Part shown: positions 11,457 to 46,214 of the stretch, one piece after another
Layout of the letters: every line of letters begins with the position of its first letter
Position numbering within the stretch: the first letter of the stretch is position 1
DNA from: Polyangiales bacterium
Lineage (GTDB): Bacteria; Myxococcota_A; Polyangia; Polyangiales; Ga0077539
Length of the DNA stretch: 64,000 nt
Reading direction: 5' to 3'
Assembly: GCA_044229975.1 (NCBI GenBank)
Contig: JBGARZ010000006.1
Span: 320,001 to 384,000, forward strand
Position numbers and translations under genes: made by a program
The notes under the pieces: generated by a model
Told to the model about the DNA's origin: nothing
Seen by the model: only the letters and a program-made list of their open reading frames with translations
Databases searched by the model: none

Positions 11457-12530
11457 GTGTTCGCCATCGACATGCTCCCCGCCGAGCACGGCGACTGCCT
11501 CTGGATCGAATACGGCCCCGCCGCCAACCCCCACCGCATCCTCATCGACGGCGGAACACCCGGCACCTTCCGCACCCTCCGCGCCCGCATCGCGGCGCTC
11601 CCCGCGGCGCAGCGTCGCTTCGAGCTGCTCGTGGTCTCGCACATCGACGCCGACCACATCGGCGGCGCCATCGAGCTCCTCGAAGACACCGCCCTCGGCG
11701 TGTCGTTTGGCGACATCTGGTTCAACGGCCATCGCCATCTTCCCACCCCCGAAGGCACTCGCGGCGTCGCGCAGGGAGAGGCGCTCTCCGACCTCCTGCG
11801 CACCCGCAACCTCCCCTGGAACCGCGCCTTCCACGGCGCCGCCGTCATGGTCCCGACGGAGGGTCCGCTGCCGCGCGTCACCCTCGAAGGCGCGATGACC
11901 CTCACGCTGCTCTCCCCGTGGCGCCCCGGCCTCGAACGCCTCCGCACCACCTGGGACAAGGAGTGCCGCGAGGCTGGCATCGCGCCGGGAGACACCCGCC
12001 GTCGTGCGCTCGACGACGCGCCTCGCAAGCGACGCAAGCGCGGTGGTGATCCCGACGTGGAGAAGCTCCTCGACGTGGCCTTCGCGCAGGACACGGCCGA
12101 GGCCAACGGCAGCAGCATCGCGCTGCTGGCCGAGCACGACGGCAAGCGCGCGCTGCTCACCGGCGACGCCTACCCCGGTGTGTTGATGGACGCCTTCGAG
12201 CGCCTCTTCGACGAGCGCGGTGGTGAACCGTTGCGACTCGACGCGATGAAGGTCTCGCACCACGGCAGCCGCGCCAACACCACGTGGCCGCTGCTCTACC
12301 GGGTCGAGTGCGGGCGGTATCTCTTCAGCACGGACGGGAGCGTCTTCGATCACCCCGACGACGAGTGCGTGGCGCGCGTCGTGGCGCACGGCGGACCGTC
12401 GCCGACGCTGTGCTTCAACTACCGTGGACCGCGCACCGAGGCGTGGGCCGACCCGGCGCGCGCGAAGGCCCTGGGTTACACCGCGGTGTATCCCGCGGAC
12501 GGGGCCGAAGGGCTGCGGGTGGTGCTGTGA
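11457..12530 (+). CDS. MBL-fold metallo-hydrolase (ComEC/Rec2-like)
   Basis: HGDC, LIDGG, SHIDADHIGG (HxDxDH), NGSSI, LLTGDA, KVSHHGS, HPD. Confidence 0.9.
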   Translation: MFAIDMLPAEHGDCLWIEYGPAANPHRILIDGGTPGTFRTLRARIAALPAAQRRFELLVVSHIDADHIGGAIELLEDTALGVSFGDIWFNGHRHLPTPEGTRGVAQGEALSDLLRTRNLPWNRAFHGAAVMVPTEGPLPRVTLEGAMTLTLLSPWRPGLERLRTTWDKECREAGIAPGDTRRRALDDAPRKRRKRGGDPDVEKLLDVAFAQDTAEANGSSIALLAEHDGKRALLTGDAYPGVLMDAFERLFDERGGEPLRLDAMKVSHHGSRANTTWPLLYRVECGRYLFSTDGSVFDHPDDECVARVVAHGGPSPTLCFNYRGPRTEAWADPARAKALGYTAVYPADGAEGLRVVL

Positions 12531-13774
12531 CGAAGCGCGCCCTCTGCATCGGCATCAACCGCTTCACCGACCGCGAGCTGCCTCCCCTCCGCGGGGCGGT
12601 CAACGACGCCCGCACGCTGTCGCTGATGCTCATGCGGGACTTCGGATTCGAGCCGCGGGACGTGCGCGTGCTCACCGACGAGCGGGCGACGAAGGCCGCG
12701 CTCGTAGGGGCCATCGGCGCGCTCATCGACGGGTCGCGCGCGGGCGACGAGCTGGTGCTCTTCGCGTCGACGCACGGCTCGCACGTGCCCGATCAGGACG
12801 GCGACGACGAGGACGGCTACGACGAGGTGCTCGTCGCCCACGACCACGACTGGGAGCGCGCCGTGCTCACCGACGACGACCTCGCGCGGCTGCTGGCGAG
12901 GCTCCCGGATGGTGTTCGTCTGGCGGCGCTCTGGGACACCTGCCACGCGGGGACGATGCAGGACACCGCCTCGCAGAGCTACCGCACCCGCAGTGTCGAG
13001 CGCCCCAGCGGGCTCGCCGATGGCGTCGAGGTGATGGGCTACCGCTACCTGCCGCTGCCCGACCGCTACGACGTCCCGCGCGGTGCGACGAAGGGTGTGC
13101 GGAAGAAGCCGCCGGCGCCGACGCGCAAGAAGAAGAAGCCGCCCGCGGGCGCCGACCATGGTGCCCTCGGGGCGCTCGTGCACGACGCGTTTCCCGCGGT
13201 GTCGCTGTCAGGCTGCGCAGACGACGAGACCTCCGCCGACGCGAGCTTCGGGGGCATCTACGAGGGAGCTTTCTCGCACGCGATGCTGGAGGTGCTGCGG
13301 CGCACGAAGGACGAGCTCACCTGGGAGCAGCTCCACAACCTCACGCGCGCGCAGATGAAGAAGCTCGGCATCAAGCAGACGCCGCAGCTCCACCTGCCGC
13401 GACGCGCGCAGGGCGTGCCGGTGTTCGGTGGGAGGGCGCGGCGCTCGACGGTGATGGTGAGCGTCCCGGCGGTGACGGCATCGGCGCCGACCATCGCGGT
13501 GGTGGATGTTGGTGCGGTCGACCGCGAGATCGCGGCGCACGAGCAGGCGGGGCGCTGGGCCGAGGCGGTGGCGGCGTGCTGGCGGCGCGTGGCGCTGGTG
13601 CGCGACGTGGCCGAGAAGGTGCGAACCATCGAGCATGTGGTGAGCATCCACCGCGTGGTGCTGCGCGACGAGGCCGCGGCGGTGCGGGCCGCGGAGGAGG
13701 TGCTGCGGGTCGATGCGGGGCACGCGGGGGCGCGGGAGTATGTGCGCGCGGCGAAGGGTCGGGATGGGGTATAG
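12527..13774 (+). CDS. Metacaspase (peptidase C14) with C-terminal TPR-like helices
   Basis: KRALCIGIN, LRGAVNDA, catalytic His (STHGS) and Cys (DTCHAG), QTPQL; GTG start overlaps the MBL TGA. Confidence 0.9.
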   Translation: MTKRALCIGINRFTDRELPPLRGAVNDARTLSLMLMRDFGFEPRDVRVLTDERATKAALVGAIGALIDGSRAGDELVLFASTHGSHVPDQDGDDEDGYDEVLVAHDHDWERAVLTDDDLARLLARLPDGVRLAALWDTCHAGTMQDTASQSYRTRSVERPSGLADGVEVMGYRYLPLPDRYDVPRGATKGVRKKPPAPTRKKKKPPAGADHGALGALVHDAFPAVSLSGCADDETSADASFGGIYEGAFSHAMLEVLRRTKDELTWEQLHNLTRAQMKKLGIKQTPQLHLPRRAQGVPVFGGRARRSTVMVSVPAVTASAPTIAVVDVGAVDREIAAHEQAGRWAEAVAACWRRVALVRDVAEKVRTIEHVVSIHRVVLRDEAAAVRAAEEVLRVDAGHAGAREYVRAAKGRDGV

Positions 13775-15949: not shown

Positions 15950-16172
15950 CGGAGTTCGCGTGGGCCCATGAGCCGAGGTGCGGTCGCTCACTCCGGGCTA
16001 TTTCACGCGGTCACCTCGCTGCGCGAGGTTGCAGCATTGGCATCGAAGAACAAGTCCATCGGCTTGCTCATCGCCAGTCGAGAGTCCCTGCAACCTCGCG
16101 CAGCGAGGTGACCGCGTGAAATAGCCCGGAGTGAGCGACTGCACCTCGGCTCATGGGCTCACGCGAACTCCG
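15950..16172. repeat. Long inverted repeat (85-bp arms, 53-nt loop) between convergent genes
   Basis: 15950-16034 is the reverse complement of 16088-16172 with 2 mismatches. Confidence 0.95.
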
Positions 16173-17082
16173 GCCCAGCGCGCGTGTAGCCGTCGAGCAC
16201 GAAGCGGTACATAGCCTCCGGGCGCGTCGAGCCGCACGTCAGCAACGCCGTTCGTCCGTCGCGCTCTCGCCGAACCTTCGTGGTGTGCAGTGATCCGGTC
16301 GCGTCGGCGAAGGTCACCACGCGCGCCTCGCCGTCACCCGTACACGAGCGGAAGCGCAGCTCACGCGCACCCAGCGGCGGACCATCGCGTCGCACGAAGC
16401 ACTCGGCCGCCTGAACGAAGCGCCCGTAGAGGCAGCGCCCGCGGTAGAGCGCCGGCTCGACGTGGTCGGCCAGGTAGCCGTCGAGGATCGAGCGCCCCGT
16501 GGCCTCGTCCACGCGCCCGAAGTAGAGGCCGTCGGGGAGGCACACGAGGTTGGCGGCGAAGCGGTCACCGCCGACGTGCGTCGACTGCCACACCTCGATG
16601 CCGGGGTGGTCTTCGAGCGCGTGGTAGAGCGCGGCGCCGTAGCGCGCGCAGCACGCGTCGTGGCGGCCGTGGGTGCATACGAGCGCGACGCGTCGGTCGG
16701 TACGGAGATGGTCGAGCGAAGGGTCGCGACGGACGAAGGCGGCGATGTCGAGCTGGGTGATCTCGGCGTAGTCGGAGAAGGAGACGCGATAGAGCACAGG
16801 GTCGCGCTCATGGGGGACGGCCACGAAGAGTGAGCGTATGGGACCGGGCTCGGGCGCGCGTTGGATGAGCTGGATGCGCAGGCCGTCGATCTGGTCTTCG
16901 GCGCGGCGGAGGTGCTGCTTCACGCGCTCGTCGAGGCGCTCGGAGCCCTCGACGGCGTCGTGCGTCCACGGACCCGGGCACTCGATGAGCAGCCACGCGT
17001 CGACAATGGAGGCGGTGGCGGTGAGTGACTCGTCGTTGGCCCGCGAGGTCTCTGCGCAATAGACGTGAGGAGCGCGACTCAC
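16159..17082 (-). CDS. Sucrase/ferredoxin-like Fe-S protein
   Basis: WLLIExPGPW, CTHGRHDACCA, HVGGDRFAAN, YRGR; GTG start overlaps the TGA of the cupin gene. Confidence 0.9.
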   Translation of the reverse strand: MSRAPHVYCAETSRANDESLTATASIVDAWLLIECPGPWTHDAVEGSERLDERVKQHLRRAEDQIDGLRIQLIQRAPEPGPIRSLFVAVPHERDPVLYRVSFSDYAEITQLDIAAFVRRDPSLDHLRTDRRVALVCTHGRHDACCARYGAALYHALEDHPGIEVWQSTHVGGDRFAANLVCLPDGLYFGRVDEATGRSILDGYLADHVEPALYRGRCLYGRFVQAAECFVRRDGPPLGARELRFRSCTGDGEARVVTFADATGSLHTTKVRRERDGRTALLTCGSTRPEAMYRFVLDGYTRAGPEFA

Positions 17083-18272
17083 GGCTCTTCGACGGCGACG
17101 AGGCCCGCCTCGACGAGCTCGCGGATGAAGACACGCAGCGTGTCGGGAGGCAGTGACGAGACCTCGCGCAGCGCACCGAAGCCCACGCGGCGGGTCTCGG
17201 CGAGCGCGCGCAGCACGGGGAGCGCGGCGGCGGCGAAGGTCCAGCGACGGCCTCCGGCAGCGATGCGTACGGCGCCATCGGGGTCGGGCTCGACGCGATC
17301 GATGCGAGACGGAATCCAGCGCAGCGACGCGCCATGGGGGATGGGCGAACGTGCGGCGGCGAGGGGCAGGCTCATGCGGGTGCGGAGCTCGGCGGCCGTG
17401 TCGAGCTCGGCGAAGTAGCGTTCGAGGAGGTCGTCGGAGAGGAGGTCGACGAGCGCGCCGCGGAGCTCGCGCAGGTGGGCCGAGCGCGCCGCGGAGTCGC
17501 CGAGACGCGGGAGGTCGCGGCGAAACGCGGGCTGCGAGCGGAGCTCGTCGGCGCACCAGTGGAGGAGGTCGACGCCGGTGCGGGCGGTGGCGCCGAAGCT
17601 GAGGTGCAGCGTGGGCTCGCCGAGGGCGACGGCGCCGTGCCAGCAGCCACGCGGGAGGTAGAGAACATCGCCCGCCGAGAGATCTCCCTCCCAGATGGGT
17701 TCGGTCGGCGCGACGTCGTTGGGTTCGACGTCGTGGGTGAGCGGAAACTCGCGGGCGAAGCCGTACACGCGCCAGCGCTTGCGGCCCGTCACCTGGAGCA
17801 CGAACACGTCGTGGTCGTCCCAGTGAACGCCGAAGCCGTGGGTGGTTCCGAAGCCCGCGTAGGCGTTGACCTGGAAGCGCTCGCGAAACACTCCCTCGAA
17901 GCTCTCGGCGAGCTCGCCCACCGGGTCGACGAGCTCATCGACGGCGTCGAGTACCAGCGTCGCCCCACGGCGCAACTGCTCTTGCAGCAGCGCGTGGTCG
18001 ACGCGACGGTTGGCTGCGCTGCGCCCGCGGTGTGATGTCTGGATGTACTTGTTCTCGGGGACGGAGCCGCCGTCGAGCGCGAGACGCAGACGTGGTGCGG
18101 GCAGGCGGTGTGTGCGGAGCACCGTGTTGAGCGTCTCCCACGGGAGCAGGTGGGCGAAGCGGTCGGGGTCACCCGCGACGTGGAGGTGCCGTCGCCCCCA
18201 CGCGTCGCGGACGAACTCATCGAGGCTGGTGCGACCGAAGAGGCCGCGGAGGATGTCCTCCGGGCGAGCCAC
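17079..18272 (-). CDS. JmjC/cupin-4 Fe(II)/2-oxoglutarate oxygenase (YcfD/ROX-like)
   Basis: NAY, facial triad HWD...WH, QVTGRKRW, GDVLYLPRG, LHLSFG; C-terminal winged-helix-like segment. Confidence 0.92.
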   Translation of the reverse strand: MARPEDILRGLFGRTSLDEFVRDAWGRRHLHVAGDPDRFAHLLPWETLNTVLRTHRLPAPRLRLALDGGSVPENKYIQTSHRGRSAANRRVDHALLQEQLRRGATLVLDAVDELVDPVGELAESFEGVFRERFQVNAYAGFGTTHGFGVHWDDHDVFVLQVTGRKRWRVYGFAREFPLTHDVEPNDVAPTEPIWEGDLSAGDVLYLPRGCWHGAVALGEPTLHLSFGATARTGVDLLHWCADELRSQPAFRRDLPRLGDSAARSAHLRELRGALVDLLSDDLLERYFAELDTAAELRTRMSLPLAAARSPIPHGASLRWIPSRIDRVEPDPDGAVRIAAGGRRWTFAAAALPVLRALAETRRVGFGALREVSSLPPDTLRVFIRELVEAGLVAVEEP

Positions 18273-18277
18273 GGCGG

Positions 18278-18586
18278 TCAGGCCGGGCTGCGGCCGTCGG
18301 TGCCGTCGGCGTCGCGGTGCGGGGTTCCATCGGTGCCGTCAGCGTCGCGGCCGGGCTTGTTGTCGGTGCCGTCGGTGTCACGGCCGGGAGCGCCATCGGT
18401 GCCGTCGGCGTCACGACCGGGCTTGTTGTCCGTTCCGTCAGCGTCGCGACCGGGCTTGTCCTTCCCGTCAGCGTCGCGGCCGCTCGCCCTCGCGTCGTCA
18501 CGAGCGCCCACGCGCTCGACGTTCAGGATCAGCCCCGAGCTCTCGTCCCCGCCCTGCGCCCCGTTGCTCGTCTCGTTCTTGTCCAT
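18278..18586 (-). CDS. Repetitive Asp/Gly-rich peptide, putative RiPP precursor (102 aa)
   Basis: Strong RBS AGGAGGAG at 18593-18600; ~35-aa leader followed by six (G/H)RD(A/T)DG(T/K)D units; stop 5 nt before the JmjC start. Confidence 0.8.
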   Translation of the reverse strand: MDKNETSNGAQGGDESSGLILNVERVGARDDARASGRDADGKDKPGRDADGTDNKPGRDADGTDGAPGRDTDGTDNKPGRDADGTDGTPHRDADGTDGRSPA

Positions 18587-18630
18587 GACCAACTCCTCCT
18601 ACGGATGTCCGTACGCAGCCTGTTGACCTG

Positions 18631-18701
18631 GGCGCTCAACGTCAACGACCGACCTTCCGTCGCTCGTGTTCTGTGGTCCATCATCGCTGTCCCTCCCGAT
18701 G
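18631..18701. repeat. Direct repeat copy 1 (duplicate of the nth upstream region)
   Basis: GGCGCTCAACGTCAAC...CCCTCCCGATG; the first 55 nt match 21176-21230 with 1 mismatch. Confidence 0.95.
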
Positions 18702-18795
18702 GCTTGGGGAGCGTGGTCTTCGATCGGCGATGTCGATCGTGTGATCGTGTCGATGGCCGGTGCGGGGTGGAGCGATCGTGTACCTTTGGGGCGCC

Positions 18796-20010
18796 ATGGA
18801 TCGGCTCAACCGCTACCGCGAATTCATGCGCCAGCTCGATCTGACGGACGCCGAGGAGGTGATCCGAAAGGGGATGTACGTCGCGCCCGCGGAGGGTGGG
18901 GTGGCCGAGCGCCTCGTGCCGTCGGTGGCCCTACGCCCGTACGCTTCTCACGTTCTGGTCGGGGGCATCGGCTCGGGCAAGACCACGCAGCTTCTCGTCG
19001 CGGCTGACCTCATCGAGGCGCGCTGTCCGGACACGTGGGCGGTCTACGTGGACGTCAGCAGGCGACACCGGTTGGCCGAACTGGCTCCGGGGGTGCTGGT
19101 TGCGCTCGCGGGTCTGGTGATCGAAGGCATCGTGCGTCCCAATGTTATCGCGCCGAGGTTTACGGAGCGGCCATCGGAGGTTCATCGCGCGCTGGAGCGC
19201 GTGCGGCGATGGGCCAAAGGCGAGCATGTAGATCCGGCGTATCTCGACGAAGGAGTGCACGAAGGTGACGGGGCAGTGTGGGTGGACGGCCTGCTCAAAT
19301 CTCCAGAGCCCTTGAGAGAGCAGTTGTCGGAGAACCTCGATGACATCGAGACCCTCCGCAACGCCCTGCCGAAGGAACGGCAGAACGTGACGATCCTCTT
19401 CGACTCTCTCGACCGCCTCGACGATGTCGACACTTTCGTCAGGTGCGTCGAACAGGACCTTCGCGCGCTCCGGCGACTCGGGATTGGCGTCGTGATGACT
19501 GCTCCGCTTCAGGCTATGTTCGGTGCGAAGCGCGCCGACCTGGATCGTTTCGACGTCGTCCTTCAACAGTCGGCGGTCGATGTAACGAACGACACGACCG
19601 GGCTCGCGTTTCTCTCCGATGTGCTCTTCCGACGGGCGCCCGCTGGACTGCTCTCCCCAGACGCCGCCGCGGCCCTCTCGCACGCCTCGGGTGGCGTGTT
19701 GCGCGACCTCATCGGGCTTGCTCGCTCGGCCGTGGAGGAAGCGTACATGCGGGGCGCCGACGTCGTCGACGTCGCCTCGGTGAGGCTCGCGATCGACCGC
19801 TTCGGCCGCAAGCGCATGCTGGGACTTCGCTCCAACGAGATCGACCTGCTCGATCGGGTGCGCCGCACGGGGCGCTTCGTTCCGACGACGGACGACGAGG
19901 TCGCGCTGCTCGTGACCCGCCGCGTCCTGGAGTACGAGGAGGACGGAGTGCGCTTCGCCGTGCATCCGACGCTCGTCCCGCTGCTCGAGTCCTTGAAGGA
20001 CGCGGCGTGA
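18796..20010 (+). CDS. P-loop NTPase (AAA/STAND-like)
   Basis: Walker A GGIGSGKTT, Walker B ILFDSLDRL, SGGVLRDL (GxxR motif), C-terminal VHP. Confidence 0.88.
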   Translation: MDRLNRYREFMRQLDLTDAEEVIRKGMYVAPAEGGVAERLVPSVALRPYASHVLVGGIGSGKTTQLLVAADLIEARCPDTWAVYVDVSRRHRLAELAPGVLVALAGLVIEGIVRPNVIAPRFTERPSEVHRALERVRRWAKGEHVDPAYLDEGVHEGDGAVWVDGLLKSPEPLREQLSENLDDIETLRNALPKERQNVTILFDSLDRLDDVDTFVRCVEQDLRALRRLGIGVVMTAPLQAMFGAKRADLDRFDVVLQQSAVDVTNDTTGLAFLSDVLFRRAPAGLLSPDAAAALSHASGGVLRDLIGLARSAVEEAYMRGADVVDVASVRLAIDRFGRKRMLGLRSNEIDLLDRVRRTGRFVPTTDDEVALLVTRRVLEYEEDGVRFAVHPTLVPLLESLKDAA

Positions 20011-20597
20011 CGATGTCGCCTGGCGCCCTCTCGCTCGGCGAGTTCGCCATGGGCGTGGCGCTGCGGTTCGGGACGCGCGACTGGTCGGTGCTCCTGGTGA
20101 CGGAGGCGAGCCGCTGCGAGACGGTGGCGCGCCAGCTCGCGGATGAGATCGAAGCCCAGGTCGAGGTACTGCCGGTGATCGCTGAGGTGGCGGAGTCACT
20201 GATCGAGGTCCTCCGTCACGAGAACCGTCCAGTGGTCGTGGGGTATCAGGGCGCGAGGGCGCTCGACGCCGTGTGGTCGTCGCTCGACCTTGACCGAAGT
20301 CGCCTGCCCGCCGCTCAGAGCGTGATGCTCGTGTTGACCCCGGCCGCCTTCGACCAACTAGAACGTCGCGCGCCGAACCTCGCAAGCTGGCTCGGCGCGA
20401 CGGTGTCGCTTGCCGATCTCGACGCGGGGCTGCTCACCGACGACGAGCGGGCGATGATGCTGGAGGGCTTCCGGACGAAGTTCGCGATGACCGACGAAGA
20501 GTTGCTCAAGGCTGCCGCGGAGGGACGGGCGCCTGCGGAGCCCGAGGTCGCGACGTGGCTGGTGCTGTTGGGACGAGGGGATCTTCTTGGGGCGTAG
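20007..20597 (+). CDS. Hypothetical protein, possibly an inactive NTPase-like partner
   Basis: GTGA overlap with the ATPase; LDLDRSRL...APNLASW motif; no Walker A. Confidence 0.7.
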   Translation: MTMSPGALSLGEFAMGVALRFGTRDWSVLLVTEASRCETVARQLADEIEAQVEVLPVIAEVAESLIEVLRHENRPVVVGYQGARALDAVWSSLDLDRSRLPAAQSVMLVLTPAAFDQLERRAPNLASWLGATVSLADLDAGLLTDDERAMMLEGFRTKFAMTDEELLKAAAEGRAPAEPEVATWLVLLGRGDLLGA

Positions 20598-21162
20598 CGA
20601 CTTCACGGCCTTGCGGGTCAACATCCAGAGCCGCCTGCTCGGGGTCGAGAGGCCGGGACTGCCAGACACCGCGCGTGCCCTCCAACAGGAGGTCACGAAG
20701 CTGCTGGTTGGATTCTCGAATGATGGACTCCTGAAGAACCCGCCCCGTGAAGTCTATGGACTGTTGAAGCGGACCAAACCCACGGCGGACCGGGTCGCGT
20801 TGGCCGTCTGCTCGCCCGCGAACTTCCGTAGGGAGCGCTCGCTTCCTCACTTTGAGCGCGACGACGGAGCGTGGTTCGACTTCCACCTCGACGTTCGGGA
20901 GCGCGGTCGACAGCCGGTCGAGATCGTCGCCTACGGCTTCGAGTTGAGGTTCGACGCGAACGCTGGAGCGCCCGCGTGGGTGCGCTTCGACCTCAACCCA
21001 CCGGGCACCGACAACGACCGTCGAGGCGTCCGATCGCACCTCCACCCGGCGACGGATGACTGGTCGGTTCCGTCTCCCGTGTTCACGCCGATCGAGTTGC
21101 TCTCGATCATGGTGCTCGGGATGCGACCCGAAGACCCGGAACATCCGCGCAAGGTCGAGTAG
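20587..21162 (+). CDS. Hypothetical protein with RFD...SHLHP motif
   Basis: Overlaps the upstream stop; TTG start uncertain; WVRFDLN and RSHLHP. Confidence 0.7.
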   Translation: MGRSDFTALRVNIQSRLLGVERPGLPDTARALQQEVTKLLVGFSNDGLLKNPPREVYGLLKRTKPTADRVALAVCSPANFRRERSLPHFERDDGAWFDFHLDVRERGRQPVEIVAYGFELRFDANAGAPAWVRFDLNPPGTDNDRRGVRSHLHPATDDWSVPSPVFTPIELLSIMVLGMRPEDPEHPRKVE

Positions 21163-45662: not shown

Positions 45663-46214
45663 TCAGTCGCGCTTCCATAACGAGAGGAATTCCGCGGCTA
45701 CCACCAACGATCGGCCGCTGTCGGAGAACCCGAATGCCCGTAGTTCGGGCCAATCCTTGACCAACAGGAACTCCCTGTCCGGTTCGCTGGATGGGTCGTC
45801 GTAGGGGACTTTGAGCACCAAGCTTTCACAAGGCCAGTTGGGCGCGACTCGACGGACATTCCATCCGTCTGGGGTGAAGGCCTTGAGCCCTCCCCCCCAC
45901 AAGCCAGCAACGGGGATGCGCTGCCCGGCGAGCGGCCCGATGCCGACAACCGACACGGGGTAAGGGTCGCGCTCGCCCTCCGCGCTGCCGCTGTGGCCGG
46001 GTTCGTCGGCCAAGGTGTCGCCCGTCTTGGCGTCGACCACGGTCAGTCCGTTGTGGGTCAGCACAACCAGCCACTCAGTGCCCGGCGCGAAACCCATTGC
46101 GACGGGCATCTCGAAGAACTCCTCCACGGGCACCACCACCCAAGGGGGCGGCGAACTGACCCTCTGTCGACTTCGCCACTCCGCACGAATCTTTCGGATG
46201 TGTCGATTGGTCAT
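45663..46214 (-). CDS. Hypothetical cassette protein
   Basis: ORF between attC sites; GLWGGGL...DGW, WP, ELRAFGFSDSG. Confidence 0.7.
   Translation of the reverse strand: MTNRHIRKIRAEWRSRQRVSSPPPWVVVPVEEFFEMPVAMGFAPGTEWLVVLTHNGLTVVDAKTGDTLADEPGHSGSAEGERDPYPVSVVGIGPLAGQRIPVAGLWGGGLKAFTPDGWNVRRVAPNWPCESLVLKVPYDDPSSEPDREFLLVKDWPELRAFGFSDSGRSLVVAAEFLSLWKRD

Follow-up and report, generated by a model that had tools for sequence, protein, structure and literature searches.

Here we describe a three-gene cassette on the minus strand of a 64,000-nucleotide stretch of Polyangiales bacterium DNA (GenBank assembly GCA_044229975.1, contig JBGARZ010000006.1, positions 320,001 to 384,000), hereafter called the window. 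It encodes a precursor-like repeat peptide, a JmjC oxygenase and a sucrase/ferredoxin-like (Suc_Fer-like) protein. The three form a conserved unit with leader/core anatomy across phyla, and the cassette is a widespread, apparently unpublished system built from known kinds of enzymes, which resembles those of peptides that are made on the ribosome and then modified post-translationally (RiPPs). At a little under even chances, we suggest that the JmjC β-hydroxylates several Asp residues of the peptide under the guidance of its leader, with the Fe–S protein serving as a one-electron reductase. The parts of the cassette, in window coordinates, are:

18593..18600, minus strand: Shine-Dalgarno sequence AGGAGGAG, 6 nt 5' of the peptide ATG
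18278..18586, minus strand: precursor-like peptide gene, 102 aa (open reading frame, ORF; no Pfam or NCBIfam match, homologues known)
18509..18541, minus strand: leader motif, residues 16-26 of the peptide (family consensus SSGLLLSVEP)
18281..18481, minus strand: six cores D[AT]DG[TK]D with a period of 10-11 aa, in a 33-bp tandem array
17079..18272, minus strand: JmjC Fe(II)/2-oxoglutarate oxygenase of NO66/YcfD architecture, 397 aa (PF08007, E 5.4e-28)
17082..17351, minus strand: winged helix at the C terminus of the JmjC, with three strands ahead of three helices; candidate domain for leader binding, similar to a RiPP recognition element (RRE)
16159..17082, minus strand: Suc_Fer-like protein, 307 aa (PF06999, E 2.5e-23)
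16564..16677, minus strand: predicted cluster-binding stretch C136-X8-C145-X23-H169-V-G-G-D173, in which Asp replaces the second His of Apd1/Aim32

An earlier note on this DNA had described three linked minus-strand ORFs behind a ribosome-binding site, and all of this stands where it was placed. The peptide gene is followed after a gap of 5 nt by the JmjC gene, which overlaps the Suc_Fer-like gene by GTGA.

Conservation and anatomy of the cassette

Neighbourhoods were collected from three starting points. In the first, an alignment of the ferredoxin was compared with genome contigs, covering 600 of about 2800 stretches, and of the 598 found the best 80 were retained; one of the two patterns used contained the Asp variant, and this sample leans to the Asp type. 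A JmjC lies beside 76 of these best 80 ferredoxins. An acidic ORF whose last 50 residues include 9 or more Asp is found upstream at 71 of the 71 loci that have more than 350 nt there, 5 being too short. Homologous JmjC/ferredoxin pairs lacking the peptide, a case raised in the earlier note, were therefore not seen among the scorable loci. The peptide-selected sample started from 120 metagenome loci. Removed from it were 5 that lacked an in-frame pair, 5 whose motif lay within some other protein and 63 of insufficient length; JmjC is present in 46 of 47, and ferredoxin in 19 of the 20 that are long enough. Starting from the JmjC, in Actinomycetota, a repeat ORF that is acidic or Gly-rich lies upstream at 24/24 loci (20 by the filter, 4 by eye). 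Named carriers are Acidobacteriota, Actinomycetota and Chloroflexota; in soil members of the first two phyla the cassette is common. No description of it was found in the literature searched (largely outside subscription journals, with one paper's supplement), and in the available text of a survey of JmjC neighbourhoods from 2010 the word 'ferredoxin' does not occur (PMC2938197).

The peptide itself, read in the earlier note as 102 residues with a leader and six repeat cores, holds up, as the ORF, the tandem array and the retention of leader and cores in six homologous peptides agree. S17, G18 and L19 of the leader are invariant among 24 aligned peptides. In six frames of the 10-Mb genome the pattern D[AT]DG[TK]D matches these six cores only. 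Pairwise codon differences among the cores are 41 synonymous versus 15 non-synonymous, an excess expected of a protein-coding repeat. Residues 37-102 contain 18 Asp and 11 Lys plus Arg. Homologous cores vary widely in length and sequence, and their repeat boundaries are mostly irregular. NCBIfam assigns a family neither to the three cassette proteins nor to 11 homologues of the peptide and its partners. A 'BatC protein' label on look-alike peptides (Atlas, 0.84) lay under the trust level and was not adopted. The earlier note had likened the cores to metal-binding loops. Canonical calcium-loop motifs are the EF-hand-like Dx[DN]xDG and the thrombospondin-3 type DxDxDGxxDxxD. Neither occurs in this peptide, and they are found in 19/121 and 0/121 homologues, respectively; a canonical metal loop is not supported.

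In the JmjC, the residues H150, D152, H212, K165 and H223 are invariant among 47 aligned proteins; the HxD...H iron triad and the 2-oxoglutarate-binding Lys and His align with those of NO66. The predicted model (predicted local distance difference test, pLDDT, 91) matches NO66, MINA53 and YcfD over the full length, and superposition on NO66 gives Z 27.5 with a root-mean-square deviation (rmsd) of 6.2 over 375 aligned residues. The modelled architecture is a JmjC domain, a helical domain and a C-terminal winged-helix domain. Residues 316-388 of the model run in the order of three strands, then three helices. RREs have the same order, JmjC-fused RRE-like folds have been reported (PMC12710340), and a Cupin_JmjC_RRE model (RREFam042) is listed in the supplement of that paper. 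The winged-helix profile reaches the RRE TfuB1 at E 0.26 only, among generic helix-turn-helix matches. We predict from the model that the C-terminal winged helix grips the leader. Apparent JmjC–ferredoxin fusions (4 of 7 longer matches) were rejected, as by eye they run into out-of-frame text rich in Arg, Pro and Ala.

The Suc_Fer-like protein is modelled (pLDDT 92) with an N-terminal domain, then a ferredoxin domain of thioredoxin-like fold (about 128-221), and finally a cystatin-like domain at the C terminus (about 220-305). The ferredoxin domain resembles 1f37 (Z 10.5, rmsd 2.7, 94 aligned) and 5abr (Z 10.0), and among solved structures none matches the protein by sequence. The ligand motif of Apd1/Aim32 is C-X8-C-X24-75-H-X-G-G-H (PMC11138216). 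The earlier note had called proteins of this kind Apd1/Aim32-like; a bis-His cluster of that type is not supported here, since the full motif is not carried and the fourth ligand is Asp. The position is Asp (HxGGD) in 120/120 best homologues.

We call proteins with Asp or His at this position D-type and H-type, and sampled their loci with the Pfam model, kin not being independent. Overall, D-type genes lie beside a JmjC at 19/19 loci and H-type genes at 0/36. The Actinomycetota sample gives 18/18 and 0/7, with 4 unassignable; around this genome H-type genes lie beside a JmjC at 0/29 loci and the only D-type is the present locus. If genomes with an unpublished flag (G112, G152) are set aside, two D-type loci and one JmjC-selected Actinomycetota locus drop out, giving 16/16 and 23/23. 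Cassette D-types form one clade with moderate support (92), inside which seven other proteins are nested; H-type proteins without a JmjC occur nested among cassette D-types. The His-to-Asp change goes with the cassette. Nine proteins are 65-92% identical to this ferredoxin, which was not found in 30/30 same-family genomes searched. Some metagenome loci (L092, L098, L111, L146) carry another sucrase/ferredoxin, of H-type, immediately upstream of the peptide gene.

The leader type varies with the enzyme. Leaders of SSGLLL type occur at loci whose JmjC is more than 40% identical to this one (22 loci) and leaders of LxD[ED][ED]I type at loci with a more distant JmjC (92 loci); 11 loci fall in neither group. 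In the plasmid collection, Streptomyces supplies the named JmjCs nearest to this one. Eight of the 11 plasmid JmjC loci opened (L336-L338, L346-L349 and L353, on Streptomyces plasmids) have a short upstream peptide whose leader is of the same GL[LIV][LIVR] form and whose C terminus bears one DGND-type core. In 6 of these 8 an aldo/keto reductase, not a ferredoxin, follows the JmjC, and a phosphotransferase-annotated or similar gene comes next after it. The other three comprise a non-ribosomal peptide synthetase cluster without peptide, a core without a clear leader, and another JmjC and leader type. For this peptide/JmjC/reductase form no paper was found in the literature searched.

A further 37 loci were surveyed, from 32 JmjCs of this genome and relatives, plus five Acidobacteriota loci. 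At 22 of the 37 the precursor has the other (LxD[ED]DI-type) leader, a stretch that by eye resembles a twin-arginine translocation (Tat) signal, and TDxD repeats, with no ferredoxin. The Tat-type repeats read TD[GSA]D[SG]G..AD..GRG (loci L309-L334), and in L003 the signal-like stretch is lipobox-like. These loci look like an exported sister system. Two of them, in this genome, belong to JmjC paralogues:

G000:C25 L003:958-1416, plus strand: Tat-type repeat-protein precursor
G000:C39 L002:2697-3095, minus strand: Tat-type repeat-protein precursor

In a 39-row JmjC tree the leader type changes once (support 100) and the partner twice. A single clade of ferredoxin-partnered JmjCs is rejected in this tree, which includes Streptomyces rows (approximately unbiased test, p-AU 4e-7). 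A claim of enzyme swapping was nevertheless dropped: the first test lacked the Streptomyces rows and gave no rejection of a single clade (p-AU 0.44), which counts against our reading, and support came only once these rows were added. As the groups were named after the trees had been seen and the search was a quick LG+G4 one, we limit the claim to the leader following the enzyme. Leader type tracks the JmjC clade, not the partner. As judged from the sequences, this pattern is that of leader-guided maturases.

Proposed reaction and its alternatives

Step 1: The JmjC would hold the conserved leader with its C-terminal winged-helix domain. That the peptide is the substrate of the JmjC appears quite probable.

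Step 2: The JmjC would β-hydroxylate Asp in successive repeats. The reaction is fairly likely to be a gain of 16 Da on Asp.

Step 3: The product would be an uncut intracellular poly-hydroxy-Asp peptide, binding Fe(III). The peptide lacks a signal sequence and neither a protease nor an exporter is conserved, so the product probably remains inside the cell, uncut.

Step 4: The Asp-variant Fe–S protein would return the iron to Fe(II), thus freeing iron or keeping the oxygenase active. Tentatively, and with the balance somewhat against it, we propose that it reduces Fe(III) on the hydroxy-Asp product or on the spent enzyme, without changing the peptide.

The absence of a protease or exporter remarked on in the earlier note is borne out: none was found among the scanned flanking genes, and none is conserved across phyla; a protease or exporter may nonetheless act in trans. 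Cross-phylum neighbour pairs are nearly all one ATP-binding cassette (ABC) ATPase (10/11 pairs). At the Actinomycetota loci L018, L025, L030, L034, L038, L056, L059, L065 and L068 the peptide gene has an ABC ATPase upstream of it, possibly a lineage-limited exporter.

The choice of Asp comes from residue counts in 121 peptides, a set chosen by Asp content from which 4 mis-called ORFs were dropped. All 121 have at least 3 Asp per core and at least two DxD, and DxDGxD is present in 100. Arg occurs in 29 cores (at least 3 copies in only 6), Asn in 21 and His in 7. Streptomyces and Tat-type cores, found through the enzyme and not through an Asp filter, also retain Asp motifs. Asp is the likely target residue; of the two modifications proposed earlier, hydroxylation of Asp is kept in this form, and modification of Arg is not supported by the Arg counts. 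An Actinomycetota variant (L280, L289, L291, L292, L298) has GHDGGADG repeats, which add His to the core.

The link to iron comes from stand-alone Suc_Fer proteins, of which the plasmid collection holds 35 records. Seven, picked across taxa, were opened, and 6 of these 7 have TonB receptors, siderophore-binding proteins or iron ABC permeases as neighbours. The loci with such proteins inside iron-siderophore uptake operons are L339, L341-L345, L275, L218 and L219; one D-type gene heads a Peripla_BP_2 and FecCD operon with no JmjC. β-Hydroxy-Asp chelates iron in siderophores (PMC12628792). Stand-alone sucrase/ferredoxins in such operons are candidate ferri-siderophore reductases.

Several observations weigh against our reading. 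JmjC and ferredoxin are on the same strand at 34 of the 76 loci and on opposite strands at 42. The winged-helix domain is equally that of ribosomal oxygenases (ROXA look-alikes; YcfD, NO66), and shared inheritance alone could yield the co-variation of leader and enzyme. The universality of Asp is partly built in by the acidic filter, and Thr is present in 121/121 cores (at least 3 copies in 113), so the counts chiefly exclude Arg, Asn and His. In Ktedonosporobacter, three D-type ferredoxins lack a neighbouring JmjC. Queries for siderophore-binding and FecCD proteins match in the flanks of 0/76 cassette loci and within 1.5 kb at 2/36 H-type loci, and most iron-linked ferredoxins belong to a clade distant from the cassette ones. 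Finally, the core charge of this peptide is −0.10 per residue versus a median of −0.37, the least negative of the 121, which weakens the chelator idea. Given the few iron neighbours, the distant clade and the least acidic peptide, the ferric-reductase role of the cassette Fe–S protein remains a lead only.

The main rival is a two-step tailoring, in which the JmjC hydroxylates Asp and the Fe–S protein alters that residue again (by oxidation, dehydration or epimerization), with the labile Asp ligand providing an open cluster site. It owes this rank to Streptomyces, where the same JmjC clade and leader come with an aldo/keto reductase in the slot of the ferredoxin (6/8 loci). The His-to-Asp change that accompanies the cassette also speaks for it, as do the H-type proteins without JmjC nested among cassette D-types. 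However, the fold is that of a thioredoxin-like ferredoxin that transfers electrons (1f37), one iron ABC operon without a JmjC starts with a D-type gene, and Tat-type precursors have a JmjC and no ferredoxin. We consider this route to be on the unlikely side.

An improbable alternative is that the peptide acts as an accessory: it would serve as an acidic metal shuttle, decoy or regulator and dock on a JmjC that in truth acts on some other protein, as ribosomal oxygenases do. The nearest solved structures to this JmjC are indeed the ribosomal oxygenases NO66, MINA53 and YcfD, and the wide variation of the cores and the lack of a conserved protease or exporter would suit such a role. However, one and the same leader stands before acidic repeats as well as before single DGND-type cores, and Tat-type repeats come after the other leader, with Asp motifs in all; kept behind both leaders, these motifs form the leader/core pattern of substrates. 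It is highly improbable that the JmjC oxidizes each repeat so as to cut it (for example at the Gly Cα, or by oxidative decarboxylation of Asp) and releases several small products, as six near-identical cores, no nearby protease gene and DG in 103/121 peptides could suggest, since 18/121 peptides lack DG, 5 cores lack Gly, repeat boundaries are irregular in most homologues and the characterized relatives are plain hydroxylases.

Leader-guided multiple hydroxylation of Asp may also be part of a larger picture, which we regard as decidedly unlikely in its full extent. The cassette would make a ribosomal, intracellular poly-β-hydroxyaspartate iron sponge with its own ferric reductase (a Cys2-His-Asp [2Fe-2S] protein). 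It would belong to a large unrecognized class, in which NO66-like JmjCs are leader-guided core maturases of Asp-repeat peptides, Tat-exported and reductase- or kinase-tailored forms included, and ferri-siderophore reductases gain a further family in the bacterial sucrase/ferredoxins.

The cassette offers a testable substrate for the large set of orphan NO66-like oxygenases in bacteria (973 representatives after clustering at 50%, E up to 1e-30). It also offers a testable role for bacterial sucrase/ferredoxins, for which no functional paper was found in the literature searched. If our reading is true, a leader-guided multi-Asp hydroxylase would be a useful tool for peptide engineering, and the Cys2-His-Asp cluster would be an unusual Fe–S site.

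Surroundings of the cassette

The unit is closed by a repeat that is not specific to it:

15950..16172, no strand: palindromic genome repeat, 223 bp, overlapping the ferredoxin stop

The palindrome has 85-nt arms and occurs about 40 times across the genome (80 matches counting both strands); it looks like a miniature inverted-repeat transposable element or a repetitive extragenic palindromic element. The cassette is flanked by a divergent gene without family and a convergent flavin adenine dinucleotide (FAD) oxidase. No sigma-70 promoter or terminator passed the scan at the locus. An inverted repeat GTTGAC-N13-GTCAAC (window 18622-18646), about 35 nt upstream of the peptide start, is a possible operator or promoter element.

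Positions 18760-21162 of the window contain a divergent, unassigned P-loop-like gene (weak NF047389, E 0.053) and two orphan downstream ORFs. At 11457-13774 a metallo-beta-lactamase-like ORF is followed, as judged by eye, by a caspase-like ORF, possibly a defence pair. Between positions 46001 and 50000 the GC content is 0.56-0.62 against about 0.70 elsewhere.

Comparison with known systems

Ribosomal oxygenases proper hydroxylate ribosomal proteins (L16, L8, L27a). NO66, MINA53 and YcfD/RoxA (PF08007) have the same full-length architecture and the same metal and 2-oxoglutarate residues as the cassette JmjC. However, identity is about 20% and, unlike them, the cassette JmjC is encoded behind a dedicated repeat peptide. 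This gene context points to a peptide rather than a ribosomal substrate, of which no sign was seen.

JmjC hydroxylation of ribosomal precursor peptides is described for CzlI in curacozole (PMC11575548), BipG/PbsQ in biphenomycin (PMC12707348, PMC12257519) and PhaI in phaeornamide (PMC8784127). As in the cassette, a JmjC Fe/2-oxoglutarate enzyme stands beside a precursor peptide. These are tailoring steps in larger clusters, whereas the cassette JmjC appears to be the main maturase, acting on Asp-repeat cores. They hydroxylate Phe or ornithine and not Asp, a difference unfavourable to the chemistry we propose. The Asp β-hydroxylases CinX (cinnamycin) and CanE (canucin A), named in PMC11575548, perform that chemistry on a ribosomal peptide; by description they are set apart by acting at one site on a cyclized scaffold.

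Cupin_JmjC_RRE (RREFam042) resembles the cassette JmjC in the fusion of a JmjC to a fold of three strands and three helices, there described as RRE-like, and in its RiPP-like contexts; in the available text of PMC12710340 the entry names no precursor, ferredoxin or chemistry. With yeast Apd1 and Aim32 the cassette ferredoxin has in common PF06999, the thioredoxin-like ferredoxin fold, C-X8-C and H-X-G-G. However, unlike in Apd1 and Aim32, the fourth ligand is Asp in place of His, the spacing is 23 instead of 24-75, and the gene is tied to a peptide and a JmjC.

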